Positions 2,011 to 61,949 of a DNA stretch of 64,000 nt are shown here, one piece after another. The stretch is from Chiloscyllium plagiosum (Eukaryota). The position numbers and the translations under genes were made by a program. The notes below the pieces were generated by a model. That model made no database searches and was not told the origin of the DNA. It saw only the letters and a program-made list of their open reading frames with translations. Numbering within the stretch: position 1 is the first letter of the stretch; every line of letters begins with the position of its first letter. The DNA is taken from NCBI RefSeq assembly GCF_004010195.1, contig NC_057757.1, forward strand, positions 1,076,405 through 1,140,404. Direction: 5' to 3'.

Positions 2011-2990
2011 TTTTTAAAAATACCCTCTTGGGATGTGGACATTACTGGCAGGCAGCATTTTACTGCCACCCTAGTTGAGAAGATGGTGGTGGACTGTCTT
2101 CTTGATCTGCTGCAGACACATGCTGTAGGTTGACCCACAATACCCTTAGCGAGGGAATTCCAGTATTTTGACCCAGTGAAAGTGGAGGAACGACAATATA
2201 TTTCCTTGACAGGATGGTGAGTGGCTTGGGGGTGAATTTGCAGATGGTGATGTTCCCATTGCATCGGCTGCCCTTGGTCCTTCTAGATGGAAGTGGTCAT
2301 GGGTTTGGAAGGTGCTTCGGTGAATTCCTACAGTGCGTCTTGTTGATAGTACACAGCTGGTACCGAGTATCTGTGGTGGAGGGTATGGTGCACGTTATGT
2401 ATGCTGTTTTGTTTTGGATAGTGACAAGCTTGTTCAGTGTAATTTGAATTGCACCTATTCAGACTAGTGGGGAATATTTCATCACACTTCTGACTTGTGC
2501 CTTGTAGATGGTGGAAGGCTTTGTGGAGTCAGTTGGTGAGTTAATGGCCACAGTATTCCTAGTCTCTAACCTGCTCTTAAAGCTGTTGTATTTATGTGAC
2601 AAGTTAAGTTGAGTTTCTCATAACCTCAGAGATGTTGATAGTTGGGGATTCGGTGATAGTAACACCATTGAATGTCAAGGGGTGGTGATTAGATTGGGAG
2701 AAAGTGAGGACTGCAGATGCTGGAGATCAGAGCTGAAAAATGTGTTGCTGGAAAAGCGCAGCAGGTCAGGCAGCATCCAAGGAGCAGGAGAATCGATGTT
2801 TCGGGCATAAGCCCTTCTTCAGGAATGCCTGAAGAAGGGCTTATGCCTGAAACGTCGATTCTCCTGCTCCTTAGATGCTGCCTGACCTGCTGTGCTTTTC
2901 CAGCAACACATTTTTCAGTGGTGATTAGATTGTCTGTTATTGGAGATGGTCATTACTTTTCCATTTGTGCAGCCTGAATGTTGCTTGTCA
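2011..2990 (-). mobile_element. Older CR1/L2-type LINE 3' portion, interrupted by a Penelope-like palindrome
   Basis: Reverse complement of the family seen at 14040-14340/15921-16000 (WNSLAKGIV; cacatccc tail). Confidence 0.7.
2697..2917. mobile_element. Penelope-like palindromic terminal repeat (family A) with two opposed hammerhead cores
   Basis: Inverted arms of about 95 bp centred near 2825; exact 15-bp TSD gtggtgattagattg at 2682-2696 and 2918-2932. Confidence 0.85.
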
Positions 2991-2999
2991 TTTGACGAG

Positions 3000-4305
3000 A
3001 TATTATTGTATTTGTACAAGGAATTCTTGTTCAAAAGCCAAGGCTTTTTCATGCCCCCTTCTCAGTCCATTTTTAAGTTTCCTAGCTATCCTGTAAATGA
3101 GTTGATGGGGGATGTGGGGAGAAAGGGCATGTGGTTTATTTGGATTTTTAGAAAGCTTTCAACAAAGTCTCAAATAAGAGAAATCCATGGGGGTATTGAG
3201 GTGGATAGAAAACTGGCAGATAAGAAACAAAGTGGGAATAAATGGGTCTTTTTCTGTGCTATATCTCAGACTCCAGTACTAGGACCTGTGTATTTAGATG
3301 AGGAAACTAAATGTAAAATCTCCAAATTTGCAGACAACAGAAAGCTGAATGGGAGGGTGAGCTGTGAGGAGGATGCAGACATGCTTCAGTGGGATTTGGA
3401 AAAGTTGAGTGAGTGGGCAAATGAATGTACTGCATCTGCCATTGTGGATAAATGTGAAGCTATTCACTTTGGTAGCAAAAGCAAAAAGGCAGATTAGCTA
3501 AATGGTTGTTCAATGAGAACGGGAATATGCAAGCAGACCTTGGTATCCTCATATAACAGTTGCTGAAGATAAGCATGTGGGTTCAACAGGTGGTTAAAAA
3601 AAGACAAAAAAGACGAAAAGAAAAAGACCCATTTATTCCCACTTTGTTTCTTATCTGCCAGTTTTCTATCCACCTCAATACCCCCAATCCCAAGTGCTTT
3701 AGTTTTACATGGTATTCTCTTATAGTAAGAGAATGTGAGTATAAGAACAGAATGTCTTACTGCAATTAATCAAATCTGATTCCACACCTGGAATATTGTG
3801 TGCAGTTTTGGTCTCCTTAACAGAGGATGGATATTCTTGCTATACAGGGAGTGCAGCAAAGGTTTGCCAGACTGATTCCTGGGATGGCAGGCCCAACTGT
3901 GAGGAGAGATTGAATTGGTTCGGGTTATATTTTGTGGAGTTCAGAAGAATTAGGCAGGGTGGGGATGACTCATGGAAACCTATAAAATTCTAACGCAGGT
4001 AAATGCTGAAGGATGTTCTTGAAGGCAAAGGAGTTCAGAACCAGGGATCACAATCTAAGGATATGGGGCAAACTACTTAGGACTGAGATGAGAATTTTTT
4101 TTCTCCCCCTGAGACTGGTGAATTCATTGCCACAGAAAGCAATTGAAGCCAAAATGTTTGATTGCAAGATAGGGATCAGAATGATGGGGGGAAAACTGGG
4201 AACAGGCTATTGTATAGGTTGGTTAGCTAAAATCGTAATGATTGGTAGAGCAGTCTCAAAGCTCTGAATGGACTACTTCTGCCCCTATTATATGTGCTTC
4301 TAAGT
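3000..4305 (+). mobile_element. Decayed CR1 LINE RT and 3' end
   Basis: ISKFADNRKL, KCEAIHFG, YFVEFRR in ORFs 2940..3497 and 3796..3993. Confidence 0.85.
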
Positions 4306-5322
4306 TTTAAACTTGAAAAGTATGGAATAGAGTGAAGAGATCACCTGTGAATAGATTTAATGTAGTTCAAAGAGATTATTTAACTCAGTATTTATGTTGT
4401 GTCGTTATAGAAAAGTTTTGTGACTTTGGAACTTAAACCCTTCCTGTACAAATATGGATTATGTTAATATGATGATATTTGAACACTTAATCTCTATTGT
4501 TAGCCCACTAACATTTCCATTGTACCTAACTATTTGTACGTGGGTCTATACCATTAAAAAGCTTTGAATTAATGTCTGGAATTAATGCAGAATCTCCAAG
4601 TCACTTTGTCAATGAAACAATATGCCTGTTAGTCAATGTTACTGATCAGTGGAGTTGGAGATGTAACACTGCCCATGATCTGACCTTTCTAATTGGTCCA
4701 GTGTGTTTCATTAACAGGTCTTTTGAACGATAACATTGCAGATATTACAGCAATAGAAATGAAAAGTGGACAGTCTAAATAAAAATTAGGGTTCTTTTCA
4801 TTCCTACAGTTATTGATCTGGAAGTGCAAGTGAAACAAGAAGACCGGTCTGTACTGAGGAACATGAGATTTTAACAAACTTAATACTGGAGAAGTATTTT
4901 CTAAGAAAAGGCTGGTGTTTAAGCAAACCTAGTGAAGATTATACGGTCAAACTGCTTAAGTGTAATCAGATCCAATTTTTCAAAACCAGTTCTCTGAGCC
5001 GTGGTACAAGAGATGTACAAGTGAAAACCAGAAATGTCTGTGCTGCACTGTGCCCGGGTCATTGTTCAGCAAGTCTGCGCTATCTTCATTTTCATTTGCA
5101 ATATTCTTCATATGCTTTTGAAGGGCTGACATTACCTTGATTATACATTTTCTTCTAATTTAGTTGTAAAGATCTTGTTCATGGTAATCTTCTGAATTTT
5201 TTTAAATTTCATTTTCCTGCTATCTTTATTTTTCTTTTCATCTTTTCCAATTGTCTGTATTCAACTGTTCATCTGTAGTTCTCCATGGTGACAATTTCAA
5301 ACAAGGAAATTAATGCAAATGG

Positions 5323-5423
5323 ATGCAAGTTTGTTCACTGAGCTGGAAGGTTCATTTTCTGAAAACGAACCTTCCAGCTCAGCGAGCAAACTTACATCTG
5401 AGCTACAAATCTTCTCAAAACTC
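5323..5423. mobile_element. Short hairpin insertion, probably a Penelope-like terminal fragment of another family
   Basis: Inverted ctgagctggaaggttc/gaaccttccagctcag; exact 14-bp TSD attaatgcaaatgg at 5309-5322 and 5424-5437. Confidence 0.65.
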
Positions 5424-5645: not shown

Positions 5646-5739
5646 TCAAAGAGTGTGGTGCTGGAAAAGCAAAGCTGGTCAGACAGCATCCGAGGAGCAT
5701 GCGAATTGACGTTTCAGGCATAAGCCCTTCATCTGGACT
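5646..5739 (-). mobile_element. Penelope-like family A single arm with mutated hammerhead core
   Basis: 16-bp TSD tctaacaaa(a/g)atccag at 5630-5645 and 5740-5755. Confidence 0.75.
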
Positions 5740-6902: not shown

Positions 6903-9900
6903 GAGAGTCATGGAGTCATACAGCACGGAAACAGACCCTTTGATCCAACTTTTCCATGCTGACCAAGTTTCCCAAACTAAGCTAGTCCCAGACAAAAACA
7001 GAATGCTGGGTAAGCTCAGCAGGTGTGGCAGCATCTGGAGAGAAATCAGAGTCAATGTTTTGGCTCAAGTCACCCTTTCTGAGAATAGTCCTATTCCCAC
7101 ACTTGGCCTATTTCCTTCTGGACCTTTCCTATTCATCTATAGTGAAAAAGGTTACCTCAGATTGCATTGGAATCTTGATCAGATGGGCCAATGGGCTGAG
7201 GAGTGGCAGATGGAGTTTAATTTAGATAAATGTGAGGTGCTGCATTTTGGAAAAACAAATCAGAGCAGGACTTATACACTTAATGGTAAGATCCTAGGGT
7301 GTGTTGCTGAATAAAGAGACCTTAGAGTACAGGTTCATAGCTCCTTGAAAGTAGAGTTGCAGGTAGATAGGATAGTGAAGAAGACATTTGGTATGCTTTC
7401 CTTTGTTGGTCAGAGCATTGAGTATACAAGTTGGGAGGTCATGTTGCGACAATGTTCAGGACATTGGTTAGGCTGCTTTTGGAATATTGCATGCAATTCC
7501 GGCCTCCTTCCTATTGGAAGGATGTTGTGAAACTTGAAAGGATTCAGGGAAGATTACAAGGATGTTGCCATGGTTGGAGGATTTGAGCTATAGAGAGAAG
7601 CTGAATAGCCTGGAGCTGTTTTCTCTGGAGCGTCGGAGGCTGAGAGGTAACCTTATAGAGGTTTATAAAATCATGAGGGGCATGGATCGGATAAACAGAC
7701 AAGGTCTTTTCCCTGGGTTGGGGGAGTCCCGAACTAGAGGGCATAGGTTCAGGGTGAGAGGGGAAACATATAAAAGGTACCTATGGGGCAACTTTTTCAC
7801 ACAGAGGGTTCTGCGTGTATGGAATGAGCTGCCAGAGGAAGTGGTGGAGGCTGGGTAAATTATTGCAGCATTTAAAAGGCATTTGGATGGATAAATGATT
7901 AGGAAAGATTTAGAGGGATATGGGTCGTGTGCTGGCAAATGGGACTAGATTAGGTTAGGATATCTGAGCATAATGGACGAGTTGGACCGAAGGGTCTGTT
8001 TCCGTGGTGCACAGTTCTATGACCTTTCCAAATGTCTTAATGTTGTAACTGTATCTACCACTTCCTCTGGCAGTTCATTCCACATACGAATCACCCTGTG
8101 TGAAAAAGCTCCCCCTCAGATACCTCTTAAATCTTTCTCCTCTCCCTTTAAAATTGTGTCCTCTGGTTTTGAACTCCCTTACCCTGAGAAAAAGACCTTT
8201 GCTATTTATCTTATCTATACCCCTCATGATTTTATAAACCTCAATAAGGTCACCCCTTAACCTCCTATGCGTGAAGAAAAGAAGTTCTAGTCCTAGACAG
8301 AAGTGGGAAGTTGAGTATGGACCCAGTGGAGACCGGAGAGGTGCTAAACGGACATTTCTCATCGGTTTTCACTCAGGAAAAAGAGAATATTGCAGAGGAG
8401 AAGAATGAGATATTAGACTAGAAAGGATCGAGGTTAGTCACGAGCAGGTGTTATCAATTCTAGAAGGAATGAAAGTAGACGTGTCCCCTGGGCCAGATGG
8501 GATTTATCCGAGGATTCTCTGGGAAGCTAGGGAGGAGATAACAGAGCCTTTGGTTTTGATAATTGAGTCGTCATTATTTACAGGTTTAGTACCAGAGGAC
8601 TGGAGGATTGCAAATGTGCCCTTGTTCAAGAAGGGCAGTAGAGATGACCCAAGTAACTATAGACAACTGAGCCTTACTTCTGTTGTAGGAAAGATTTTGG
8701 AAAGGATTATAAGAGATAAAATTTATAATCATCTAGCAAGCAACAATTTGATTTCACATAGTCAACATGGTTTCGTCAAGGGCAGGTCATGTCTCACAAA
8801 CCTTATTGAGTTTTTTGAGAAAGTGACCAAGCATGTAGATGAGGGTAGGGCAGTTGATGTGGCATAGACAAAGTTAATTTCAGATATCTGGTCAACATGG
8901 GTGGGTTGGACTGAAGGCTCTGTTTCCATGCTGTATATCTCTATGACTCTATTAAGAGGGCAAATGGACTATTGCCCTTCATTGCTCGAGGGATTATGCT
9001 GCAGCTGTATAGGGTTCTACTGAGACCACACCGAGATATTGTGTATAGTTTTGGCTTCCTTACTTGAAAAATGATGTACAAGCACTGGAGAGTGTGCAGA
9101 GGAGGTTCACTAGGTTGACTTCAGAGTTAAGAGGGTTGGCTTATGAGATTGAGTAGACTGGACTATACTCATGGTAAAAACAATGACTGCAGATGCTGGA
9201 AACCAGATTCTGGATCAATGGTGCTGGAAGAGCACAGCAATTCAGGCAGCATCGAGGAGCTTCAGCAAAATCGACGTTTCGGGCAAAAGCCCTTCATCAG
9301 GAATAAAGGCAGAGAGCCTGAAGCGTGGAGAGATAAGCTAGGGGAGGGTGGGGGTGGGGAGAGAGTAGTCGTAGAGGGACTGAGTTCCGGAGCCGCAATA
9401 TGATGCTGCAATTATACATAACGCTAGTGCGGCCACACTTGGAATATTGTGTACAATTCTGCTTGCCATATTTCAGAAAGGAAGTGGAAGCATTGGAAAA
9501 GATGCAGAGGAGATTTATCAGGATGTTGCCTGGCCTGGAAGGAAGATCTTATGAGGAAAGGCTGAGAAATTTAGGTCTGTTCTCATTGTAAAGAAGAAGG
9601 CTAAGAGGGGATTTGATAGAGACATACAAAATGATCAGAGGATTAGATAGAACAATACAGCGCAGAACAGGACCTATGTTCTATTCAGTTTCTCCTTATA
9701 GATCAAACCCTCCAGTCCCAGTAATATCCTTGTAATTTTTTTGTATACCCTTTCCAATGGAATAATATCCATCTTATAGCAATGCAAATAGAACTGTATA
9801 CTGTACTCTAAAAATAACCTCACCTACGTCCGGTAACATGATGTCCCAACTCTTATACTTAGTGGTCTGAGCAATGAAGGCAATCGTGCCAAACTCCCTC

Positions 9901-9965: not shown

Positions 9966-12274
9966 TCGTATTAGTGATGCTTATTTCTCCTATACCCTAT
10001 TTCTCTATTATCCTGTTACCAATACTCCTATTGAAGACAATTTCTCTGACAACCTAACTCTCCTTTGAAGTGCCTCCTTCTTATACCTTGAAATCAAAAC
10101 AGAATAGACTGAAAATGCTTAGATGTCCTGTAGCATTTGTAGAGTGAGAAACAAAGCTAATGTTTCTGTTTAATCACCTTTTCTCAAAACTCGTATCATA
10201 GTAGTAAAATTACTAGATTGGTAGTCTAGAGGGCTGGACCATTCTCCAGAGTCATGAGTTCAAATCTTACCTCTGCAGGAATTTAATTCAATTAGTTAAT
10301 AAATCTGAAGTAAAAAGTTAGCCTTTACGATTATCATGAAACTTGTTATTAAAAACAGGTTCATTTACCTTTTGTATATGTGAATCTGTGCAGGAATGTG
10401 ATTGGTGTATAAATATTTGCTGAAATGGCCTAACAAGCTAATTGTTGGTTCACTGTCCAGTTTTCAAGGGCAACTAAGGATTGGCAATGGATATCCCCGT
10501 CTCATAAGCACATATAAAATTCTCTAGTCATTACTTAATAGAGGCAGATTGGAAGTTCCAACTGGAGGCCCATACTCAATATCAAATGATAATTAGAATT
10601 CCTTAACAAAAGAACATATTTATGACACTTTCCTGGCTTTGTCAGTCTTTGAGGAAGTTTCAATTCTCATATTTATTTCTTCAGCAACATCAACTGATTT
10701 GATTGAATTCAACTACACTTGATTGTGGTGCCCTTGAGGTGAAACACACCACCTGTGTCATTTCAGAAATGAGACATCACTCTTTTATCCTCCAGGAGCA
10801 TGGCAACTTTCACAACAACTCTGGATAATCAAACCATTAAAGAAATATCAACATAATGTTTCATTTACTTTTTTTAAGCATGGGCCATTGCTGTCTTGTG
10901 TGATTCAGAATGCATTCCATAACTGTTGCTTCATTTTAAGTTGCAGTTTTACAAGTATCATTTATAATTTGGATGATACATGAACCATCAAGCTCTTCTG
11001 TTTGATTCACCCTAGTCTAGTTTCTGGTTTATTAGTATTCTGTTCCCTCCAAACTTGCACCCTCCTGCAATAAATGTGGGAATGCTGTTTTTTTTTGTCA
11101 TTGGTCAGGTCTCCTCATTCTCCAGGATCTCAATAATATTCTTTATCACTGCCCAATATTTCGCAATTTCTTTGGATTTGCATTCTTTGACTTTAAAAGT
11201 GCATCTTCTACCTAATAAAGTTTTGGAAGGCCAAACACAAGAAGATATAAGATTCACCTGAAATGACAACTGCAAACTCAACCTTGTTGACCCTATAAAG
11301 TCCTCATTAATTATTGGGGCTCGTGCCAAAATTGAGAGAACTGTCTAATAGACTTGGTAAAAACAAGGACTGCAGATGTTGGAAACCAGAGTCTAGATTA
11401 GGGTGGTGCTGGAAAAGCACAGCAGGTCAGGCAGCATCCGTCAAGCAACAGCCCAACCTAATCATACTAATAGAATCATACCTTACAGATAATGTTTTAA
11501 ACTGCATCATCACCATCCCTGGGTATGTACTGTTTAACTGTCAGGATAGACCTACTAGAGGTGACAACACAGTGGTATACAGTTGTGAGAGTTCCTCTTG
11601 AAGCACTCAGCATTACCTCCGAACTCCATGAAGTCTCTTGGCATAAGGTAAAAAATGATCAAGGAAGCCTCTTATTGATTGCCATATACTGACTACTACT
11701 GCAATAGGCTGATGAATTTGTCTTCCTGCAAGTTCAGCACCACCTAGAGGAATCACTGAGGATAGAAATGGTGCAGAATGTATCTTGGGTGACGTACTTC
11801 AATGTCACCACAAAGTGTGGCATGTCAGTATCACTAGTGACAGCTGGTTGAGTGCTAAAGGATATAGCTGCTAGATTGGAACTGTGGCAGGTGGGAAAGA
11901 AACCACCATGAGGGAAAAACAGACTAGACCATCTACTCACCAATATGTTCACCACAGATGTACATGTCAATGACAGTCTTTAAAGGAGTGACCAGCAAAT
12001 AGACCTGGAAATGAAATAATATCTTCATATTGAGGATACCATCCATTGTGTTGTGTTGCTCTATCAATATGTTAAATGGGATAGATTTTGAACAGAGATC
12101 TCAATACCACCATTACTAACAAGTGGAGGGATCAACCCTGGTTCATTGAAGAGGACATTAAAAATGAGGTATCAACTTGGTGAAGCTACAACTCAAGATA
12201 ACTTGCATGCCAAATAGTGCAAGCAGCAACTCTTAGATTAGCTAAGCAGTTCAACAAGCAACGGATCAGATCTA

Positions 12275-18606: not shown

Positions 18607-18821
18607 AAATCACACAATACCAGTTTATAGTCCAAGAGGTTTATTTGGAAGCACTAGCTTTCAGAGCACTGCTCCTTCATCAGGTGGTTGTCAACCACAT
18701 GATGAAGGAGCAGTGCTCTGAAAGCTAGTGCTTCCAAATAAACCAGTTGGACTATAATCTGGTGCTGTATAATTTTTAACTTTGTACACCCCAGTCCAAT
18801 ACTGGCATCTCCAAATCATGA
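18607..18821. mobile_element. Penelope-like palindromic repeat (family B) with two opposed hammerhead cores
   Basis: Inverted arms of about 85 bp centred near 18691; minus core 18655-18683 CUGAUGA A GGAGC AGU GCUCU GAAAGCUA. Confidence 0.8.
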
Positions 18822-20319: not shown

Positions 20320-23300
20320 GATCCTGGGAGTAGTGGGGCTTGAATATCAGCAAATTTTCCCAAGTGGACCAAGACATTAAACAAGGCCAGTTATGAAGGC
20401 ATGAAACAAAATTGACTAAAACTGAATTAGACAATCAGTTTAAAGGGTAGGTCAATAGAGAAACAGTGGCAGACATTTCAGGGGATATTTCAGAAGTCAA
20501 CAAATTTGGAAAATTCCAGAGGACCCAACATTCATTGTAACTAGAAAAGTTAAACAAAGTATAAAGTATTAAGAAAAAGTATATAACGTGTGCAAAGTCG
20601 GATGGCAAATCAGAAGGTTGAAAAGAATATAAAAAATCCAAACAATTAACAAGGAGACAAAAAAATTGAGTTTGAGACAAAGGAAGCTTGAAATGTAAAA
20701 ATATGTTAAGAGTTTAATAAATGTTTACAAAAAAATAAAGTGAGGATTTGTCCTATAGAAAATGAGTGTGGAGAATTGATATTAAAAAAAATGAAGGCGT
20801 GGCAGATGAGTTAAGTGATTATTTTACATCACACTAATCTTCACAACAGAAGGTAAAATCCCAGAAGCAGCTATCATTCAGGAAATTGAAAAGAGGGTCT
20901 TGGGAAAATTAAAATAATTGGAGAAGTGATACTGAGTAAATTGTTGTGGGTGCAGGCTCATAACTTATAATAGCATTTAGTTTGGTGTTTGGATTTGAGC
21001 TAGTGGCATGTGGGCTTTGATCTGTGTGTTTCAGTTGATTTAAAGACTAACTTGTAGATATTTCTCTAGTCATGGTAATTTTGTTTGAAAAAAAAGACAT
21101 ATTTCTTGGAGGCCAATGGGACTTTGCTTCTCATGGGAGAGGTTTTACAAATCCACAACCGTAAACATTTGTGTATTAGGCTTTCAGTTCAGAAGATCAG
21201 CAATTGATATTTTTCTTTGGGGAGAACACCCAGAGTTTGGAAAAAGCTTTTGATTTCGGTTTGGCAAGTTTGCAGAAGTCCTTGTTGAAGTTGGATACCT
21301 AAAATAGTCATTCCTCAGAAAGTGAAAAATCACACGACACCAGGTTATAGTCTAACAGGTTTATTTGAAAGTACAAGCTTTCGGAGATCTGTTTTTGGGA
21401 AAATTTTAGAAACCATTAACAAAGCCATCATAGCAAGGAACTTCAGTAAATTCCCTGTGATCAGGCAGAGTCAGCATGGTTTTGAAAAGTGATACCATGT
21501 TTAACCAATCTGTTGGACTCTTCCACCCCAGGGAAAAGACCTTGTCTATTTATCCTATCCATGCTCCACTCTCTTTAAGAAAGTAATGTGCTGTGGATAA
21601 AAAGGAACTGATGGATGTAATGTACCTTGATTTCCAGATGGCATTTGATAAGGTGTAACATCAAAAGGTATTATGGAAAATAAAATTTCATGTATCAGGA
21701 GCAGCATTTTGGCATGGAAAGAATATTGGCTGGCTAACAGGAAGAATTGAAAAGGGTGGTGCTGGAAAAGTACAACAGGTCAGATAGCATCCAAGGAGCA
21801 GGAGATTGGATGTTTCAGGCATAAGCCCTTCATCAGGAATGTGGAGAGGGAAGGGGGAATGAGAGATATATAGCAGGGGTGGGGCTGGGGTGGAAGGTGG
21901 GTGGGATGACAATAGGTAGACTCAGTTGGGGGAGCAATTGTAATAGGTCAGTGGGGAGGGTGGAGCGGGTAGGTAGGTAGGAAGGAAGATGTACAGATAG
22001 GACAGGATAAGAGGGCGGTGCTGAGTTGGAGGTTGGATCTCGGATGAGGTCGGGAGGAGGGGAGATTTGGAAACTAATGAATTTGATGTCGATGCGATGT
22101 GGTTGGAGGGTCCCAAGGCAGAAGAAGAGGCATTCTTCCAATAAAGAGTAGGCGTAGTGGTGTCTTTTTTCGATTGCAAGATGTAATGAGTAGTGCTTCA
22201 CAGCTATTGGCACTGCGACTTGACTGTTTACAATGTATATAAATAACTTGGATGAAGTGCTGAAGGTATGGTTGCCAAATTTGCTGATAAGAAAACAAAA
22301 AGTCATAGCAGGTGTAGGTCGTTTGGCCCTTGAATGCTTCATCATTCATGAAGATGACAGCTAATTTGCCATGCCTCAACTCATTTTTCTCAGGCCAATC
22401 CATCATAGCTCTCAGTTCCCTGTTATTATGAAAAACTATTTACCTCCTCTTTAGAAGCTAGCAGTGATGCAATCTCCACAACTCTTTAGGGGAAAGAATC
22501 CCAGACATTCAATACCTTCTAGCAGAATAAATGCTTTCACATTTTAAATGAGTGTCCTAACATTGTCCCCAATTCAAGATTTCCCCACTAGTGGAAATAT
22601 CTTCTCAACATCTACCCTGTCAAGTTCCCTCGGGATCTTGTATGTTGCAATAAGGTTACCATTTTGACTGGAAGATAAAAAAAAAGCAAGCGTGTTATCT
22701 CAATGGTGAGAGACTGCAGAGCTCGGAGCTGCAAATCTGGGTATCTTAATACTTGAATCTCAAAAGGCTAGTATGCAGGTATAATTCCTAATTGGGAATG
22801 CTTATAGAATGTTATTTATTGCAAGAAGAATTGAATACGAAAATAGGAAAATTATACTTTAAATATGTAGGTACTGCCTGATCACATGTGGAGTGCTTTA
22901 TACAATATTAGTGTCCAGTCAAGGAAGAATGTGTGTAAATACACTGGAAGCAGTGCAAAGAATGTTTACCAGGCTGACACCTGGAATGGTCCATTTGTGA
23001 GGGACTGGGCTAAATAGACTCGGCTTGTATCTGTTGGAATTTAGAAGGGGTGACATGATTGAAACATTTAAGGTCCTGAGGGGTCTAGACAGGGAAATGC
23101 AGAAAGAATTTTTCCTGCTATAGGATAATCTAGAACTTGGGATCACTGTTTAAAAATAAGGTGTTACCCATTTAAAACAGAGATGAGGTGAGTTTATTTT
23201 TCTTCGAGGATTGGGACTCTTTGGAATTCTCTTCCTGCAAATGAAGTGGGTGGAATCTTGGTAATCAAGGGAGTGAAAGGTTATTGGGGTTTGTGAGATG

Positions 23301-23918: not shown

Positions 23919-24087
23919 GTATCGAGAGTGTGGTGCTGCAAAAGCACAGCAGGTCAGGCAGCATCTGAGGAGCAGGAGAATTGATGTTTCGGGCATAAGC
24001 CCTTCATCTTCTCATTCCTGTGCTGTGCTTTTCCAGCACCACACTCTCGACTCTGTTCTCCAGCATCCACAGTCCTCACTTTTTCCT
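23919..24087. mobile_element. Penelope-like family A partial palindrome
   Basis: Exact 14-bp TSD atgtcttgggtgta at 23905-23918 and 24088-24101. Confidence 0.85.
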
Positions 24088-25044
24088 ATGTCTTGGGTGT
24101 ACTCATGCTTGAAGTGCACTTGATAAACTGGTTTGATTTTGAATTGGATCATAGATCCTGCCTTAAAGACAATCACTGATGGACAAGAAATGCTACAAAA
24201 GATCATCGTCACCAACAATCTTTTGTTTATCAATACCTTATCTGAAGATCTGGAGAAGGAAACAGCCTTCCATGTCTGGGTATGCTCCTGATAGCATCAA
24301 TGTGAGATGGATATCAGCATGCAGTCTTTGGTGGCAATAGTAAAAAGCATTTTCATTCTGTAAACATTCTCATTGAGGATTTTAGTTCACAATAGTAGAC
24401 AAACATATTTAGCAAGGGATTTGTATTTGTCATGTGCTTAATTCTGCTACATTCAAAGATTTGAATGAAACTACCCATCAGTGATTGAGGTCAGAGATGT
24501 CCTGCACTTATAAATGCTGCTATACATAGCGTGCCACACATTGATTTGGAAGAAGTGGAGACAGCCTACTCATTTCTTATGCGACATTGCATTAAGGAGA
24601 TTGGTGAAGTGGCTCATTGTGCAGGGACCTGTTGGTATTGCAGATGCAGCTGCTGGGTTAGGCGGGATCGGCTCTAGGGGCACAGGAGTTGTCCATTTTA
24701 GGAACCATTGCGAACATCCTGTTCAGGGAAAACACCTTATTTACTCCATGATTGTTACCAATCATTTTCAGCTAATTGTTTCATATTACTGAGTGAACCT
24801 TGTACCTTTACAGGGAGGTGTGCAGCTGTTGCATGCATTCTGAGTGATACTGCACTTGTCTCTCCATGGGACTAGCCATTCTGTCATGATTGGATGTGTG
24901 GTTGAACCCCCGAGCCAAGAGAGCACACCACTGTTATAGACTGCTGCATTTTCATTGCACAGACTTGCATTGATTTACAAAATGGTGAAATGTCCACATA
25001 TCTGGATAACAAGGATACCGTCAGGCTCCTATTTATTGACAGAT

Positions 25045-25180
25045 TCAAGATTAGTAGAATGGTGCTGGAAAAGCACAGCAGGTCAGGCAGCATCAGAGGA
25101 GTAGGAAATCGAAGTTTTGGGCAAAAGCTCTTCATCAGGAACCCCTTCCTGATAAAGGGCTTTTGCCCGAAATGTTGATT
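25045..25180. mobile_element. Penelope-like family A asymmetric palindrome
   Basis: Opposed decayed cores at about 25111-25138 (-) and 25149-25176 (+). Confidence 0.75.
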
Positions 25181-26242
25181 CAAGAGCAGCCTCTTTCTGC
25201 TGTTATTAGACTTCTGAATGGACCTCTGAAATTTCAGATTTAATGTTTATTTCACTCTTTGTGTATCTTCTCTGTAGCTATAACATTGTATTCCTCGCTT
25301 GGTTGTGTTACCCTTTATGCAGTTTACTCAAATCATTTGTATGGTATGATCTGCCTGTTCTGCATGCAAAACAAAACTTTTCACTATAGGTACACGGCAA
25401 TAATAAATCAAATCAACATCTGCTGCTGATGCTCCAAATATTGTGCTCCATAGGGTGATCCCTGAGACCTTATCTCTATGCATAATGGAGCATTATTGTG
25501 ACTACTGTCCCTCCTCCAGGGATTTATACGAAGGTGTCACTGACTCCGTTCCTTCACCTGTACTCACCAAATACTACTGATTCTATATGCATGCAACATT
25601 CCTCTGATATGCTACCAACCACATTGAGAAAATGCAGGCCAATTAAAAATGCTGCTGCTTCCTTGAATGTCTTTTCCTCCTAATGCCCAAGTATAAAGTT
25701 GATCCAGTGAGTTGTTGGGGTGGAGAGAGAAGCAGTAAGTAAGTGAGCTGGGACCTATGTGAGTTCTGAACAAAATGTAATGAGGTTTGACCCTTCATAT
25801 TGAGAGCCATCTTGAAATATGCGATTTACTTTAACCTCTAATCACAACTGTATTGCTTGTATTATGCAACCGAACCATGTACTTGAGATGTAACATTTGT
25901 GATTTTTATAGTGTGTTTGCACGATACTAGTTGTACACTAGTAGTATATGTGTGTCTGAAGGGGTTTAGTAATTAATGTGTAAGAACTATAGTACAGATG
26001 AGAAGCAGGGGATCTGTACTTTTTCCTTCTGCAACCAAATGGCACTCAGGCCATTGATAGTAACAGCTTCAGCACAGTTGGTGGGAAAGTGTGGATCCCA
26101 GAATCTCTCGGTTTAGCACAGTACAATATACTAATTATATATAATGTGAGAAACTGAAAGGCTCCTCTATCTTTATTTCTTGTCAAGGTAATCAATCAAA
26201 TTTCAATGAAGCATATAAACCGTACATTTCTTTTTAAAAAGG

Positions 26243-30097: not shown

Positions 30098-31331
30098 AAC
30101 TCATTGATTTAGGCATGAAATCATGCAACAAATGACTCCCCAAAAACTCCCACCCACCACCTTACCACTTTAAAGCCTTTGCCCCCTTGTTTCTTCTAAA
30201 TATATTTTCAGTGAAGGCGTGAGAGCCAGTCCTGACAGTGTAGCTCCATCATGTCTCAGACTGTTGCTAATGCCAATTAAACAGACTTTCAGTGACTAGC
30301 TCTCCATTGTGACTGTCCTCCATGCAATATTATTCCTTGGTCTCATAGGTCATGAGTACATTGTAACTGTTGGGTAGATTCCATGTCTATGGGGCCTCCT
30401 CTAAAGATGTGTCTAAGTTCTGTATAATATTGTCCAGACATTCTTCTGACTCCCTTCTAGTCATACCAAACACCTTCTTCACTATCCTATCTACCTGCAA
30501 CTCCATTTTCAAGGAACTATGAACCTGCACTCGAAGGTCTCTTTGTTCAGCAACACTCCCAAGGACTTTACCATTAAGTGTATAAATCCTGCTACGATTT
30601 ACTTTCCCAAAATGCAGCACCTCACATTTATCTAAATTAAACACCATCTGCCACTTCTCAGCCCATTGGCCCATCTGATCAAGATCCCGTTGTAATCTGA
30701 GGTAACCTTCTTTGTTGTCCACTATACCTCCAATTTTGGTATCATCTACAAATTTACTAACTATACCCCTTATGCTCACATCCAAGTCATTTATATAAAT
30801 GATGAAAAGTAGTGGACCCAACACCAATCCTTGTGGCACTCCACTGGTCAAAAGCTGGAGATGTGGAGTTAGATCACAGATCAGATAATTTTATTGAATG
30901 GTGTAACAGGTTTGAGATATATAACGACCACCTCCTTTTCCTTCCTTCCCCTGCAGTCCTATATTACTGCTGTCTCTATCTTTTCTCCAGAGACGATGAG
31001 CTGTAGCAGACACAGTTTACCTAAGCTGTATATAATCTGCTCTCAACATAGTTAACCACTTTCACTCACTGGGGAGTGGGATGGGGAGGAGATAGCTATT
31101 CAATAATTAACATTCGGAAGCATTCCCGAGAGCTGGGACTAATCTTCCAGAGCTAAGGTTCCTGAGTAAATCCATATAATCATTTAATGGTGGGGATTAT
31201 TGTCAGAACTATACAACCTGCTCACTGGCTCCTCTCTTAGCTTAGATTTTAAGGATAGTAGCTTGTGTTACTTAATCACAGAGAGCAGAAATATAATATA
31301 TTCAGTCTCAAGTCCCTGTTAACTTACTTGT

Positions 31332-31484
31332 CATGATTTGGAGATGCCAGTGTTGGACTGAGGTGTACAAAGTTAAAAATCACACACCAGGTTATAGTCC
31401 AACAGGTTTAATTGAAAGCACTAGCTAGTGCTTCCAATTAAACCTGTTGGACTATAACCTGGTGTTGTGTGATTTTTAACTTTG
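31332..31484. mobile_element. Penelope-like family B palindrome collapsed at the hammerhead site
   Basis: Inverted arms of about 55 bp meeting at gcactagctagtgc. Confidence 0.75.
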
Positions 31485-38453: not shown

Positions 38454-39427
38454 TCATTCTTCCAAACCCCTAATTTCTAATGGCCAACTGTCCGATGTTT
38501 CTTCATAAGATAAGCCCCTCATCGCAGGAATGAGTTGAGTGAACCTTCTTTGAATTATTTCTGAAGCAATTCTACCTTAAAATCAAAATTATGACACCAA
38601 AACTACATAGCACTGTAGACATATAACTGGACCTCCAAGGGCCTTTGTTCCAATATAATCTAATCTCAATCCTTTCAAAGGAACATTTCAATTCATCTTT
38701 CTTGATCAAAAAATAGATGAAACGTTGAATTCTACCTTTTAGTATATTGTCAATATACTAAATTCAAACTTGATTAGAGTTTGTTTTTTTGGGGGTATAA
38801 TTTAAACTGATTAGCCAAATTCAAAATTGTTTTTGTCTCTGGGCAACCAGCTATCCTAGCTGCTGGACCACATGTTACATTGTATCTTATTCAGAACACT
38901 TGGTGCTGTTGGATAGTTCTGCTCACATTTAACTCTCTTACAGGTACAGTACACCCACATCTTCATAACAATCTATCCAAGCAAGAATCGATTAAGGTAT
39001 AGATGTTGAATATTGCTGCAAAAAGACATTTTGTGAAAGCTTTCTGTCTTGCACTCATAACAAAATGTTGCAAGAATACCAACTCAAGGGAAAAAAAATC
39101 CAACCTTAATGCTACATGAGAAGAGATGGCTGATTGGTTGGCAAGGGGATTCTGATTGGTAGAGATACTCTCCCTGGCAACATCTGTGCAAGTAACATTC
39201 TTGCCCACACAATTCCCAGTCAGCCAATGGATATCTCTAACAAGAAAGAATTTAAGCAACACCTCTCCATTCAATGGCACATTGTTGAATCCCCCACTAT
39301 CAACCTTGGGGTTACCACTGAGCTGAAACTGAACCAGACTAGCCACATTAATACTAATCTACAAGAGCAGGTCAGAGGCTAGGAACCTTGAAGTGAGTAA
39401 CTCACCTCCTGACTCCCCATAACTTGG

Positions 39428-39645
39428 AGAAAGTGAGGACTTGGAGATGCTTGAGATCAGAGTCGAGAGTGCGGTGCTGGAAAAGTACAGCAGGTCAGGC
39501 AGCATCCGAGGAGCAGGAGAATTGACGTTTCAGGTAAGAGCCTTTCATCAGGAATTCTTGATGAAGGGCTCTTGTCTGAAACGTCGATGCTCCTGCTCCT
39601 TGGATGCTGCCTGACCTACTGTGTTTTTCCAGCACCACACTCTTA
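39428..39645. mobile_element. Penelope-like family A palindrome within an older LINE (about 39165-40055)
   Basis: 16-bp TSD actccccata(a/g)cttgg at 39412-39427 and 39646-39661; opposed cores at 39524-39551 and 39558-39585. Confidence 0.85.
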
Positions 39646-43898: not shown

Positions 43899-46800
43899 TG
43901 TGATGATGCTGCTCCTTTAACAAGGTAATGTTATCTTTGGTTTTTGTTTTCAGAGTGATTGTAACGACACAGATTCAGAGAGAGCTAAGTTTGAAGGGTA
44001 TTAGGGCCAATTTGATTATAGCTAACAGATACTGCCTCAGGCAAAAGGTTTTCAAGATTTGAAATAATCACTTGTACGATAAAATGGGAGTGGCCAGTTC
44101 TCCCAGCCCAGCTTTTCTCTGCTTTGGTTTGGGGTTTTAGCGAGCAGTCAGTGGTGAAGCTGCAAGACCCAAAGAAGCAGCTCCATGCTGATCCTCCCCC
44201 TCTCTGACATCGCTCCTGGAAGACCCTGGGTTTGATTTTACCTTAATTGCCAAGGGGGTGTTTATGGGGATTGTTGCAGGAATTTGGAACAGCATCATTA
44301 AGTGGGGATACTCTGTTGGGTTTTCAGACAGGCTAAGTTACTCTATTGTCTGTACCTTTTTGTTTGTGTTTCATTCGGTAATATCGCAAATAAATTCTGT
44401 TTTGTTCAGAACTGAGTGGTTGGCCAACTGCATCTCTTCTGGAATATCTACTATAAACCTGCTTCAAACAACTAGCAAAGTTAGTGTCCATGCTACTTTC
44501 TTGAAATGATTTGAGGGGGACTGTCCTGGTCCATAACAGATTGAGGGCTTGTCTGGGATTTGTTCAATGGTTCCAGTTGGGATTTGTGTTGTTGGACTTA
44601 GAGGCAGCGAGTGGCAGGTGTGAGTATCTTTTATTCTGCGTGTTCATTTTGGTTGGTTTAAACAGTGCTTGGGATAGCAATGGCTCTCTCAGTCACTAAG
44701 AGTTTTCTGGGGTTGGAAGAAGTGACTTTGGGGGTTTCACAAAAAGAGAATAAGGCCAAGCTGCTGGAATTAGCAGACAAGCTGGGATTGGAGCTACCTC
44801 CTTCTGTGTGGGAAGGAGAGATAATTACAGCAATAGCTCAGCATTTAAATTTGTTGGAAAAGCCATCAGAATCTTTCGAGATGGCTAAAATTCAATTGAA
44901 AAAGAAGCAGCTTGAGTTAGAGGCAAGGAACAGGCAACAGAAATGAAATGGTTTGAATTATGATTAAAAGCAGAGGAAATGGAAAAAGAACACTGAATCT
45001 TTTAGCAGAACATAAAGAAAAAGAGAGAAAGAGAGAGAGACAGCAGATAGAAAGAGACAGAGAGGAGAGAGAAAAGGAGAGGGAAGAAAGGAAGAAAGAG
45101 AGGGAGTTTTAACTTCAGAAATTGGCACTGAGACAGGAAAGTCAGCTGAAATGGATGGAGATGAAGGCTGAAGGGAAGTTTAGTGAGGAAGAGAGTGAGG
45201 ATGAGCAAACCCATGGTAGCTAAAGGGCTGGGGAGAAACTGTTTAAAGCTTTGCCTAACTTCGATGAGAGGAATGTGGAAGCCTTTTTCATCTCATTTGA
45301 AAAGTTAGCTAAACAAATGCAGTGGCCAATCAGCTTAATCCAAACAAAACTTGTAGGTAGAACTAGTGAGGTATTCACGTCACCATCAGAGGATGTATCT
45401 GGGCCGTATGAGGAGGTGAAGAAAGCCCTTTTAAGTGCATGTGAGCTTGTGCCAGAAGTCTATAGATAATGTTTCAGGAAACTAAGGATATCGAGTTTGA
45501 AAGGATCAAACAAATAATTTTGATAGATGGATAAAGGCATTAAAATAGAGCAAACCCATGATGTTCATAGAGACAATTATTTGGGAGGAGTTCAAAAATT
45601 CACTTCTGAAGTAGTGAGAACTTATGCAGAAGAGCAGAGAGTTAAGAACGGCAAGGTTAGCAGCTGAAGTGGCTGATGATTATGAGTTGGTCCATAATTC
45701 AAAGTTTAGCTTCCAAAATCAATTTCAATCCGTGAGGGATAGAAGTTGGGACAAAGAGAAATCCTCACGTGGATAGAGAAAAGTAGATCTTGGTGAAGAT
45801 CATGAGGATAACTTACCACAGGGTACAAAAGGAAACCCTTGAAGGGGAAAGAGAAGTTAAAAAGCTCTGGTGCTTTCACTGCAATAAAGTAGGCCACATG
45901 AAATCACAATGTTGCTGGGCCAGGAAAAGCACTGGGAAACCAGATGTAGGAAAAACAGGATAAGCCAGTGAATTTTGTCAGAGTGGTAATGGAAAGCACA
46001 GTGTAGGCTAAAAAGCTGACCAGAATGTACAACTTGGTCAGAGGTTGATTAAGGAGGAAGTGCCAGATCTTCTTAAACCATATACCTTCAAGGGTAAAGT
46101 GTACTCACATAGGCCAGGAGCAGCAGATAAAGAGGTTACAATATTAAGAGATACAGGATCCTCTCAATCTTTGATGTTGAAAGATGAGGAGCTATGTACC
46201 CCTGAAGGACTATTGCCAGAAAAGGCAATCCTGGGATTGAGTGGGTTTTATCGAAAATTCATCCCAGTGTGGCTGCAGAAAGGCAAGAAGTTTCATTGGA
46301 CAGCGGACTGTCAGAAGGCATTTGACAACCTGAAGGCTGTGTTAACCACTGCCCCGGTATTAGCCACAGCTAATTACGCAAAGTCAATTTAAGACGATTA
46401 TCGACACAAGTGATGCGAGTGTCTGTGCTGTGTTCTTGCAAGAAGATGATGAGAGATAGAAAGACCTATCAGTTATTTCTCAAGGAAATTGAACATTAAT
46501 CAGCATAAATATTTGACAGGTGAGGAGTCAGAAAAGATTTACAAGGATGTTGCCAGGGTTGGAGGATTTGAGCTATCGGGAGAGGCTGAACAGGCTGGGG
46601 CTGTTTTCCCTGGAGCATCGGAGGCTGAGGGATGACCTTATAGAGGTCTATAAAATCATAAGGGGCATGGATAGGGTAAATAGACAAAGTCTTTTTCCCT
46701 GGGGTGGGGGAGTCCAGAACTAGAGGGCATAGGTTTAGGGTGAGAGGGGAAAGATATAAAACAGACCTAAGGGGCAACTTTTTCACACAGGGTGGTACGT

Positions 46801-50052: not shown

Positions 50053-50745
50053 TTAGAATAGAATCCCTACAGTGTGGAAACACACCCTTCGGCCAACATG
50101 TCCATACCGACCCTCTGAAGATTATCCCACCCACACCCATTCCCCTATTACTTAACATTTCCCCTGACTAATGCACTTAAAATACACATCCCTGCACAGT
50201 ATGAGCAATTTCTCATGGCCAGTTCACCTGACCTGCACATGTTTGGACTGTAGGAGGAAACCGGAGCATCCAGAGGAAACCCACGGGGAGAATGTGCAAA
50301 CTCCACACAGACAGTCGCCTGAGGTGGGAATCGAACCTGGGTCCCTGGCGCTATGAGGCAGCAGTGCTAATCGACACTCCCTAACCACCCGATGCCTGGA
50401 GGAAGATTGCCTCATCTTCCACCTTCTAACACCATGGCATCAATGTGGATTTCACCAGTTTCCTCATTTCCCCTCCCCCCTCCATATCCCAGATTCAACC
50501 TTCCAACTTGGCACTGCCCTCATGACCTGTCCTACCTGTCCATCTTCCCAGCTATCTGCNNNNNNNNNNNNNNNNNNNNNNNNNNNCTCTCATTTATTTC
50601 TCTACCCCAAGCTCACAAGCCTCATTCCTGAGGAAGGACTTTTTCCCGAAACGTCGACTCTCCTGTTCCTCAGATGCTGCCTGATCTGCTGTGCTTTTCC
50701 AGCACCACACTCTCCACTCTAACCACTGAACCACCATGCCGCCTG
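50053..50745. mobile_element. HE1 SINE (-) interrupted by a Penelope-like 3' end (+, about 50371-50720)
   Basis: RCLEEDCLIF...HGINVDFTSF remnant; core CUGAGGA...GAAACGUC at 50628-50655; 27-N gap at 50560-50586. Confidence 0.8.
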
Positions 50746-52939: not shown

Positions 52940-53468
52940 TATGATTTGGAGGTGCCAGTGTTGTACTGGAGTGTACAAGAGTAAAAATCACCAACACCAG
53001 GTTATAGTCCAACAGGTTCATTTGGAAGCACTAGCTTTCAGAGCGCTGCTCCTTCATCAGGTGATTGTAGAGTATAAAATCATAAGACACATGATTTATA
53101 GCAAACGTTTACAGTGTGATGTAACTGAAATTATATATTGAAAAAGGTCTGGATTGTTTGTTAAGTCTCTCATCCTTTAGAATGACAGTGTTGATTTCAG
53201 TTCTTTCATATGTAAATCCCAGAACTTTTCTTAAAAAGTTACATTCTCAGGTTAACTTTAACAATAGGTGCCATGTCGTCTCAGAATTATGTATGAAGGT
53301 GTGAGCTGCCCCAATCTGTGCCCCAATGTTCAGACTGATTCTATTTCTAAAAAAGGAATTTACAGAATCTGACATGGATTCATGCAGTTTTTGAGCAAAA
53401 TAAAATATAATTCTGCACGAAATATGTTTGACTTGAATTGACAATATGGTCAACTGTATTGCACTCAC
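52940..53468 (-). mobile_element. Longer Penelope-like family B 3' fragment
   Basis: Same terminus as 18607-18821 and 31332-31484, extended by about 400 bp. Confidence 0.7.
53032..53060 (-). ncRNA. Minimal hammerhead ribozyme motif (family B), sense to ACAP1 pre-mRNA
   Basis: cac-CUGAUGA A GGAGC AGC GCUCU GAAAGCUA-gug; stem I cac/gug; activity untested. Confidence 0.6.
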
Positions 53469-59669: not shown

Positions 59670-60087
59670 TCATGATGTGGAGGTGCCGGATTGGGGTGGA
59701 CAAAGTTAAAAATCAGATTCAAAAAGTGTGGTGTTGGAAAAGCACAGCCACTCAGGCAGCATCTGAGGAGCAGGAGAAGTGATGTTTCGAGTATGAGCTC
59801 TTCATCAGGAATTGAGCTTATGCCTGAAACGTTGACTCTCCTGCTCCGCGGATGCTACCTGACCTGCTGTGCTTTTCCAGCACCTTACTTTTCGACTCTG
59901 ATCTCCAGCCTCTGCAGTCCTCGCTTTCTCAAAGTTAAAAATCACACAACACCAGGTTATAGTCCAACAGGTTTATTTGGAAGAACCAGCTTTTGGAGTA
60001 CTGCTACTTCATCAGGTAGCTGAGCAGCGCTCTGAAAGCTAGTGCTTCCAAATAAACCTGCTGGACTATAACCTGGCGTTGTGTGAT
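59670..60087. mobile_element. Family B Penelope-like palindrome with a family A palindrome (59716-59929) nested inside
   Basis: Exact 15-bp TSD caaagttaaaaatca at 59701-59715 and 59930-59944. Confidence 0.85.
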
Positions 60088-60216
60088 CTTACATTTGAGA
60101 AAGGGTTAGAGCAGTTTGGTCCAGGTAATATCCCTGGAGTTGGTTTATGATTTAGAAATGAAGGAGATGCAAGTAAGCTGCCTCATAGTAATAAGCTGAC
60201 AAGCAACCCAACTCAC

Positions 60217-60268
60217 CTTGAGCTTCTTCTGATAGACCAGCTGATTGTTTTGAATGGAAAACCACCGT
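60217..60268 (-). CDS. ACAP1: ACAP1 coding exon (PH domain: RWFSIQNNQLVYQKKLK); first exon visible in window
   Basis: 52-nt exon, cag acceptor, gtgagt donor; translation matches the ACAP-family PH motif; phase joins next exon. Confidence 0.93.
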
Positions 60269-61333
60269 CTGTGAATATAGAACAGAACAATGATGAGGGA
60301 AGACAAGCAGATAAGCCCAAGCAAACATTGAAGATGACCTAAATCTAGAGGTCACCTCAGCCAAAACTAAGTTTCAATATTCTCAATGCTGGAAGTGCCC
60401 GAGAGTTCTCAGGCGCCATGTTGTGCTGAACCACATGGAGGCTCTTTGCAGCCAGCAGTAAGCCAGAGTCGCCAATCTGATTCCCATGTTGAATTGATAA
60501 GATAGGAAAATGCATATTAATAAGGTCAGATATGCAGTCAATAAGGTGCATAACAAGCAATAATCCTTCCTAATATGGAACTCTCCGCTCCTTACTGAGA
60601 AACTTGTTCGGCATGAGCAGATGCACAGAAGATGCACAAGAGTTAAGAGTTTTTTGGACTGCTTGTGCGACTCTGCCACAAACTTTGCCATAGCCCATAT
60701 CAGTCAGGCTCCTATAAGATTTTGCCCCTTGCTTCTAACTTTCCCTTTCAAATGATGACCCATAGCCTGTGTTCTTCAGTATGGATCTGTGTTCCTTGCT
60801 GCTCATCATCAACCTACATATTTCCAGTACAGCCATTAGAAAACTGAATTGCATTCCTTGTGCAACCAGTATAAACGTGACCTACAAATCTAGTGTAGGT
60901 ATGGACCATAATGGGAGAAGGCTGAATTAAAAAAACACACTTTCCTGTAATGAGATTTTTGGGATTCAAAAGACAATCAAACTTAGGAAGAAAGGTAGCT
61001 GAACAGATGTGAGGCGTCTTCTAATCATAAGAAAATAAGTGCAGGAGTAGTCTTTATGGCCCTTGAATCTGCATGCCATTCTGTATTTTGTTCTTTTTAT
61101 ACAGTTCCTTGAGATTAAGGATTCTTTTTAGATTAGTTTAGATTCGATTCGATTCCAAAGAGTAACCCACCCATTCCCGTACTAATGCACCTATCACTGC
61201 GGGCAATTTATCATGGCCAATTCACCTGACCTGCACATCTTTGGATGTCATGATTTCATTCTGGTTCAATGGTTTGAAATGGCTAATAAGTCCAATGGTC
61301 AATCTATAGACTCTGCCACATGTGGGGTTAGTG

Positions 61334-61949
61334 ATTAGATTAGATTCCCTACAGTATGGAAACAGGCCCTTTGGCACAACAAGTCCACGCCAAACCTCCA
61401 GACCCATTCCCTTACCCTATATCGAACTGCCTAGCTCCTTTCCACCTATCCACTCCACCCTCTCCTCCCTGACCTATCACCTTCATCCCCTTCCCCACTC
61501 ACCCATTGTACTCTATGCTACTCTCTCCCCACCCCCACCCCCACCCTCCTCTAGCTTATCTCTCCACACTTCAGGCTCATTGCCTTTTTCCTGATGAAGG
61601 GCTTTTGCCCGAAATGTTGATTTCGCTGCTCGTTGGATGCGGCCTGAACTGCTGTGCTCTTCCAGCACCACTGATCCAGAATCTGGTTTCCAGCATCTGC
61701 AGTCATTGTTTTTACCTCTATATTTACCCCTGACTAATGCATCTAACACCATGGGCAATTTAGCACAGCCAATTCACCTGTTGTGCACATCTTTGGATTG
61801 TGGAGGAAACCGGAGCATCCTGAGGAAACCTACGCAGACACAGGGAGAATGTGCAAACTCCACACAGACAGTTGCCCGAGGCGGGGATCGAACCTGGGTC
61901 CCTGGCGCTGTGAGGCAGCAGTGCTAACCACTGAGCCACTGTGCCGCCC
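61334..61949. mobile_element. HE1 SINE (-) interrupted by a Penelope-like family A end (+, about 61422-61716)
   Basis: Core CUGAUGA A GGGC UUUU GCCC GAAAUGUU at 61591-61618; SINE resumes at atttacccctgactaatgc. Confidence 0.82.

Follow-up and report, generated by a model that had tools for sequence, protein, structure and literature searches.

This work concerns short dispersed repeats bearing a minimal hammerhead ribozyme motif in a 64,000-nt stretch of the Chiloscyllium plagiosum genome (contig NC_057757.1, forward-strand positions 1,076,405 to 1,140,404), the whole of which is called the window below. The repeats, family A, are carried by a Penelope-like element (PLE). Positions in the repeat are counted from the first core base (C3 = 0), and the predicted cut falls between 27 and 28.

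Hammerhead repeats in the window and their carrier

The original prediction placed hammerhead motifs at thirteen sites, and the window sequence agreed with all thirteen in coordinates and strand. All 11 scored core bases are kept in 8 of the 13 sites. Only 9273(-) and 61591(+) have the full core together with stems I (2 bp), II and III, and the motif at 9273-9300(-) is indeed perfect, as had been claimed. CpG decay is evident, with 20 of the 35 differences from the family motif sitting on six CpG positions. Additional arms without the full core were found at 11356-11451(-), 24021-24088(+), 59816-59930(+) and 62561-62657(+).

The copy with the perfect motif belongs to subfamily A2, lies at 9173..9376(-) and spans -75 to +125; its predicted cut, after GUC, is between 9273 and 9272. 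Another A2 copy at 61427..61717(+) runs from -158 to +126 and contains 3' untranslated region (UTR), the motif at 61591-61618 (U-G in stem III, GUU triplet) and the tail. Two copies are 5'-truncated element ends. The one at 21748..22294(-) holds a decayed endonuclease C-terminus (22294-22010), the 3' UTR and the motif 21809-21836, and ends near +87. The other, 50372..50720(+), holds a remnant of the endonuclease C-terminus (50372-50522), a UTR with a short N gap and a decayed motif at 50628-50655(+), and ends near +92.

Several inserts are palindromic, and target-site duplications of the window inserts are 8-15 bp long. The head-to-head insert 2697..2917 joins a minus arm of -5 to +124, including the tail, to a plus arm of -4 to +85, and is flanked by a 15-bp duplication (2682-2696 and 2918-2932). 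Both of its motifs are of subfamily A1; CpG decay breaks stem III at 2795..2822(-), and at 2829..2856(+) the basal pair of stem II is G-U and stem I is broken. The insert 23929..24088, with a 14-bp duplication, has a minus arm of +2 to +81 and a plus arm of +59 to +126; its motif near 23983(-) lacks C3 and U4 because the copy begins at +2. At 25060..25181 the minus arm (-3 to +79, G12>A) and the plus arm (-3 to +32, G8>A) lie within an 8-bp duplication. Both arms of 39426..39639 start from -4 with a 2-nt central overlap, the minus arm reaching +124 and the plus arm +81, and an exact 10-bp duplication flanks the insert. The insert 59723..59930 sits within a family B element; its minus arm starts from -4 and carries a motif of the GAGC/GCUC subfamily (59781-59808, minus strand), and its plus arm covers +10 to +123.

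The remaining copies are short. A solo stub at 5654..5737(-), covering -2 to +81 within a 9-bp duplication, has a decayed motif at 5708-5735 (U4>A). The stub at 11356..11451(-) is tail only, from about +35 to +125, without the core. The stub at 62561..62657(+) covers +28 to +124 and is the sole copy in the window that starts exactly at the predicted cut site. An old decayed copy of the related family C lies at 7003..7077(-).

Remnant endonuclease C-termini lie upstream of the window motifs 21809(-) and 50628(+). A genome search with the Pfam GIY-YIG profile gave one weak locus, whose peptide was used to pick 29 loci. In 22 of them the motif follows on the same strand 200-670 nt downstream (7 at 473-474 nt), typically 158 nt behind the stop codon of the open reading frame (ORF); a 23rd locus has an unrelated motif copy farther away. 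Another selection, by an N-terminal ORF peptide plus a long open frame, gave 20 loci, 16 of which have the motif 2.6-3.0 kb downstream. In loci L063 and L073 the DKG motif, reverse transcriptase (RT) motifs, a CX4CX2C linker and a GIY-YIG domain with CCHH are readable. The linker is CNRKKCKTC, and the endonuclease reads IIYCIRC..CGLLYIG with downstream histidines. A search of PDB sequences with the RT piece returned nothing relevant. Since the motif stands 158 nt behind the stop of an RT plus GIY-YIG ORF, the Penelope link of the original prediction is established, and the carrier is a PLE with a single RT plus GIY-YIG ORF. In its motifs it bears the marks of the Neptune clade.

Subfamilies A1 and A2 are each paired with their own ORF variant. 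In locus L061 the sequence past the motif continues into an ORF start about 160 nt later; the ORF is therefore preceded and followed by the same repeat, the arrangement of a pseudo-long terminal repeat (pLTR). The same locus (L061:1100-1960, minus strand) contains three A3 hammerheads on the same strand, at spacings of 224 and 320 nt and with a tail and an ORF start after each, a natural dimer substrate. It also has an inverted copy upstream, and the element sits in a tandem repeat. In L057, L047 and L013 a pyrimidine tract followed by AG, resembling a 3' splice site, was noticed in the UTR upstream of the hammerhead (at about -26, -18 and -37, respectively). The Penelope intron reportedly ends at helix I.

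Hammerhead fold, families and abundance

The family motif contains the core elements CUGANGA, GAAA and UH in order. We searched a random sample of 120 evenly spaced 10-kb regions (1,160,244 non-N bases) with a minimal hammerhead descriptor. There were 59 hits; three shuffles gave 0-1, and six decoy cores, each altered at a single base, gave 0-2. The hits sort into five families, A, B, C, D and E, in which the core is fixed and stems I-III covary; the descriptor did not require the G10.1-C11.1 pair, and core fixity in B-E is partly by construction. The prediction had turned in part on whether core positions are better conserved across families than the flanks. They are: flank identity between unrelated families is 0-45%, while the core and stem pairing are kept.

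Other structural claims also held. The extra base after A9 and G10.1 occur in 9 of 9 family representatives, and C11.1 in 8, with U through CpG decay in the ninth. Stem III is a loopless, self-complementary palindrome, ACGU in A and D and AGCU in B; the C and E representatives have AUGU, whose U-G wobble is consistent with CpG decay. Stem pairs were tabulated family by family, since automatic alignment misplaced stem II. Stem I in family A is mostly C-G, U-A, U.U, A-U, and four full pairs are found only in subfamily A3. Helix I thus measures 2 bp + U.U + 1 bp in A1/A2 and 4 bp in A3, and it measures 3 bp in B, D and E; its sequences are AUUC/GAUU or AUUC/GAAU (A), CAC/GUG (B), GCA/UGC (D) and CCA/UGG (E). 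Stem II occurs as GGGC/GCCC, GAGC/GCUC, GGAGC/GCUCC, GGGUC/GACCC and two 7-bp versions. Family A subfamilies vary at N7 and loop II, which are free positions.

Two paired changes in stem II had been cited within family A, and one of them stood. For GAG/CUC (59781), positions 10.2 and 11.2 are both changed in 7 of the 74 copies scored, and in 5 of these the new pair is A-U (p = 2e-5); this is a real compensatory pair at the subfamily level. For AGG/CCU (39524), 10.1 and 11.1 are both changed in 0 of 73 scored copies; it therefore represents two independent transitions, one at a CpG.

Inserted copies show differences in 23 of 746 non-CpG core cells (3.1%), 4-5% in the flanks and 17% at CpG positions including G12. 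With few exceptions, the dispersed copies are dead stubs, decaying in the same way as their own flanks. Selection would keep the hammerhead in active master lineages. When the motif was folded in silico, stem II always formed and stem I rarely did.

Further hammerhead families were observed alongside family A. A family B repeat occurs in the window at 18607-18784, 52941-53068, 31330-31485, 21319-21386 and 59930-60103, with stem II GGAGC/GCUCC, stem III AGCU and a CUA triplet. It also forms palindromes and has two 3' ends, and several copies begin about 8 nt before C3, some of them preceded by G. Families D and E (L123:2187-2984, L063:7959-8790 and L155) have hammerheads with 7-bp stem II behind a Poseidon-like endonuclease end that differs from that of family A.

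The claim of very high copy number was borne out: the 3.56-Gb assembly contains 53,445 exact matches to the 28-nt pattern and 0 to its reversed control. In the random sample an anchor profile (+46 to +88) gave 194 hits, from which 12 without the anchor, 5 at region edges and 10 with low score or N were dropped, leaving 167 copies. Fifteen of these belong to the older family C. The 152 family A pieces extrapolate to about 450,000 fragments genome-wide, and the 25-35 intact-looking family A motifs among them to 74,000-104,000; for all families together, the extrapolation is about 175,000 intact-looking motifs. The largest sets in the accessible part of the earlier survey, obtained with a different descriptor, are about 9,000 minimal hammerheads in Xenopus and about 4,000 in coelacanth (PMC4209133). 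By this rough comparison the intact-looking family A motifs alone, about 100,000 by extrapolation, number some ten times the largest published set found.

The repeat is also present in sequencing runs under three organism labels; the family is therefore common to related species. In an Rfam scan of the window, none of the 20 matches at E <= 10 was to a hammerhead family; the motif has no stem-loop III. MicroRNA-like matches in the same scan were rejected as candidates, since they are hairpins of the palindromes and all score under the gathering thresholds. A short palindrome at 5324-5398, resembling the family E tail, also has sub-threshold microRNA-like Rfam matches.

Edges of the copies and a model of insertion

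Most copies are stubs of 90-130 nt, and in 134 of the 167 sampled copies the 5' edge lies within 10 nt upstream of the core or farther downstream. Their 3' ends fall at +74 to +97 in 85 copies and at +124 to +127 in 63; the second group is bounded by the reference length, and all-against-all extents likewise stop near +90 and at +123-129. The two groups of ends, about 36 nt apart, correspond to the 30-40-nt tail that was traced to two internal RT start sites in the Poseidon element PAc of Anolis carolinensis. Of the 167 copies, 82 have an inverted partner, 65 stand alone and 5 follow a direct-repeat neighbour. Among 42 solo stubs, 15 lie between duplications of at least 7 bp, where shuffled pairs give 1.4. 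An informal look at the flanks inspected gave no sign of microsatellite targeting.

At the 5' side, 33 of the 167 copies start farther than 10 nt upstream of the core and 49 begin at -10 to -1, with a mode at -4 (13 copies). We then counted exact edges of A1 copies genome-wide, requiring that the three upstream bases all be transversions and that 32 matching bases follow. The counts are 218 at -8, 5,087 at -4, 537 at -2, 146 at +24, 182 at +28 and 35 at +32. Edges at the cut site (+28) are thus below 4% of the -4 count and at background level. That 5' edges mark the cut site had been suggested by a few +28 edges in the local sample, and these genome-wide counts ruled it out. As a separate observation, five tandem pieces 47-95 nt apart at G000:C16:42817618-42817934 all start at the predicted cut site.

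The triplets preceding each edge were hand-counted among the first 100 matches listed. At +28, 79 of the first 100 of 182 matches have CAG, which probably reflects a join to an inverted partner through the 2-nt microhomology of stem I. Microhomology also shapes the -4 edges, where 37 AGG and 22 GGA were found among the first 100 of 5,087 matches listed. We therefore tested the context TA, in which a partner would favour A; the local set of 34 solo and 28 inverted copies was too small for the extra-base question and mixed with older subfamilies. After TA, the base before the -4 edge is G in 52, A in 30 and T in 18 of the first 100 of 301 matches listed. At the control edge 0 it is G in 16, A in 41 and T in 43 of the first 100 of 102 matches listed. 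The excess of G at -4 over edge 0 is significant (Fisher p = 1e-7), with background G at 24-27%. An untemplated 5' G on L1 and SVA inserts has been taken as a copied cap (PMC4859970). The pile-up at -4 with an extra G, and its absence at the cut site, therefore make it likely that the stubs were copied from capped, uncut RNA. With so many copies, template ends can be read from DNA, and they suggest that transcripts have a capped start at the hammerhead and that the templates had not been cut.

TCATTCC has its A at -4, and in A1, A2 and A3 this edge coincides with the A of an initiator-like motif, YYANWYY being the initiator consensus. An internal TATA-less promoter has been described for Drosophila Penelope (PMC2377424).

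The observed layout comprises an ORF stop, a 158-nt UTR, the hammerhead, ends near +80-95 or +125, duplications, palindromes and the -4 edge with its G. With a probability of roughly 70%, we propose that the repeats are end-pieces of a PLE with a minimal hammerhead and that most copies were reverse-transcribed from the first 90-130 nt of capped, uncut RNA. RNA polymerase II would start at the A of -4 within TCATTCC, placing the hammerhead at the front of the mRNA. The RT-endonuclease protein would nick the target and then, like PAc, begin to copy from either of two internal sites separated by about 36 nt. A start in the leading repeat would run off at the cap after 90-130 nt, with C added opposite the cap, and leave a stub; a start in the trailing repeat would give the longer, 5'-truncated copies. 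Palindromes would arise when two cDNAs, primed on both target strands, were joined by microhomology. The hammerhead itself would fold with a partner copy (ACGU:ACGU as stem III) or with the element protein, and cut after GUC.

Several results weigh against this proposal. The 5' edges of 85 of the 167 copies lie within or behind the motif, for which the model must invoke early stops or trimming. Pfam scores for the carrier (GIY-YIG E = 3e-4, RVT_1 E = 0.0045) are both below the curated cut-off, and no uninterrupted full-length ORF was found among 20 long candidates, all with N gaps; the junctions at its two ends were read in different copies. The hammerhead is not the lowest-energy fold: stem I has a probability of 0.01-0.08 in A1/A2 and 0.10-0.51 in A3, and the natural tandem pair in the dimer fold is predicted to lie 5.9 kcal/mol above the optimum. 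Such poor folding fits, by analogy, weak minimal hammerheads and the need for protein in Anolis. In one single-cell run 2,494 reads matched, on both strands, and neither their starts nor their ends pile up at -4 or +28; a second run gave no matching reads. RT can add C at any template end, capped or uncapped. Lastly, the PAc endonuclease cuts best at 5'-ATT-3' in its own repeat (PMC11167929), and ATT is also the sequence at -4.

We consider it unlikely, though it is the strongest of the rivals, that the insertion template is a circle, as in the model of Cervera and de la Pena in which tandem hammerheads cut as a dimer and the unit RNA circularises. The palindromic ACGU suits a dimer, the same-strand copies 224 and 320 nt apart in L061 are arranged as it needs, dimers of other minimal hammerheads cut weakly (PMC4209133), and the 33 copies that read through the motif into the UTR look as if drawn from a circle. 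However, a circle has neither a -4 end nor a cap, and a linear cut product would give +28 edges, which are at background (182 vs 146 and 35) and, in 79 of the first 100 listed, carry the one triplet that matches an inverted-partner join. Direct-repeat neighbours upstream, in 5 of 167 copies, are also too few for it. The circle model could hold for the long copies, which are a minority.

Somewhat less probable is an origin of the -4 edge in DNA cutting or RT end-addition: the endonuclease would trim longer or hairpin cDNA at ATT, or an uncapped processed RNA would end there. The preference of PAc for ATT agrees with such trimming, Arkhipova et al. ascribed head-to-head palindromes to self-priming (PMC3846280), and the single-cell reads contain no RNA start. 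Yet a DNA cut would not be expected to leave an extra G at -4 and none at edge 0, and the edge coincides with the initiator-like A in all three subfamilies.

We doubt still more that the motif is no longer catalytic here and is retained as a protein-binding or promoter element resembling a hammerhead. In its favour, the two commonest subfamilies have a weak stem I, folding in silico prefers misfolds, the cut site leaves no footprint, and 8 of 9 Xenopus retrozyme dimers failed to cut in vitro (bioRxiv 2026.07.22.740005). Five families, however, keep the core and the stems, with compensatory changes in all of stems I to III, the pattern expected of an RNA catalyst, and the Anolis homologue cuts in a C3/G8-dependent manner once protein is added (PMC11167929). 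That the palindromic 120-230-bp units are a miniature inverted-repeat transposable element or an independent family like a short interspersed nuclear element (SINE), with mobility of its own, is very improbable: inverted ends, target-site duplications, very high copy number and the sub-threshold microRNA-like hairpins in Rfam recall such elements, but centres and arm lengths vary from copy to copy, duplications range from 7 to 15 bp, and longer copies continue into the ORF on both sides, which refutes it as the main origin.

If the stubs come from capped, uncut RNA as proposed, insertion seems not to use cut RNA, and the hammerhead is therefore more likely an off-switch than a template maker. 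Uncut RNA was the main substrate of Anolis PAc, and its ribozyme needed protein (PMC11167929). By this analogy the hammerhead may cut slowly and with help from protein, so that the leading repeat loses its cap and the trailing repeat its RT start site, a self-limiting switch; we offer this role tentatively, at slightly less than even odds. With more reserve, we suggest a general form: PLEs might start their capped transcript on the first base of the hammerhead, RT might often copy this leader as a "strong-stop"-like stub, the hundreds of thousands of stubs might be a fossil record of RNA 5' ends, and the ribozyme might be a cap-removing off-switch armed by the element protein.

Relation to known elements

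Minimal hammerheads in PLE repeats are an already published class (PMC4209133), and the family described here is an unusually abundant member of it. The metazoan pLTR hammerheads of that work share the CUGANGA, the extra base, G10.1-C11.1, GAAA, the loopless palindromic 15.2-16.2 and UH. As here, a genome has several families, whose copies are mostly solo or paired on opposite strands, and an Acropora entry has nearly the same stem II as family A. Its sets of about 9,000 and 4,000 compare with extrapolated totals here of about 100,000 in family A and 175,000 in all families, the descriptors being different. Here stem I is weaker, U.U being the third pair, and the edges do not support its model in which cut RNA is the template. 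No cartilaginous fish appears in the lists of its Table S1 or Fig. S3. Thus the original prediction was correct that the class is known; as to its suggestion of an uncharacterised family, we found no report of Penelope hammerheads in sharks or elasmobranchs in the open literature searched, with subscription papers, Repbase and Dfam outside its scope, and the supplements of the retrozyme preprint may list the family. The whale shark paper, in its accessible text, lists Penelope only as present (PMC8455134).

PAc (Frangieh et al. 2024, PMC11167929) resembles the present element in having two internal RT starts and a 30-40-nt tail, and is likened to it in the extension of both target strands, the uncut RNA substrate and the pLTR hammerhead. 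It is Poseidon-type, with an ORF that starts inside the hammerhead, whereas the element here has a CX4CX2C linker and an ORF about 160 nt behind. Cleavage was dispensable in vitro for PAc, and the accessible text of that paper reports no transcript start or cap signature. In the open literature searched, subscription papers being outside its scope, there was no paper on a cap signature in PLEs; the cap-G test is an addition of the present analysis.

Neptune PLEs (Craig et al. 2021, PMC8557442) share the C-terminal GIY-YIG with CCHH, the CX2-5CxxC linker and DKG, together with 5' truncation, partial tandems, an adjacent inverted copy and a tail. The present element matches the Neptune set in its pLTR with hammerhead, 30-40-nt tail, inverted 5' copy and variable target-site duplication, but stubs without ORF sequence dominate here (134 of 167). 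Craig et al. called the function of the hammerhead in PLEs unclear (PMC8557442). Non-LTR retrozymes (bioRxiv 10.64898/2026.07.22.740005) are non-coding pLTR derivatives with type I hammerheads, and one chondrichthyan has been reported. L061, with its one 3-unit tandem, is a small tandem of that kind; in contrast, the family here is dispersed, head-to-head and continuous with an autonomous ORF, and is in tandem in only 5 of 167 copies. Full-length L1 and SVA inserts (PMC4859970) likewise have an extra G at a fixed 5' edge, but they copy the whole transcript from the poly(A), whereas only the first 90-130 nt, with an internal start, are copied here.

Three minor features of the window were also noted. 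One SINE resembles HE1, in keeping with a shark host. A decayed frame at 46012-46392(+) resembles a protease/RT-linker stretch of a long terminal repeat element. The segments 61839-61976 and 62181-62522 form a 340-bp near-identical local duplication with SINE copies (97.7%).

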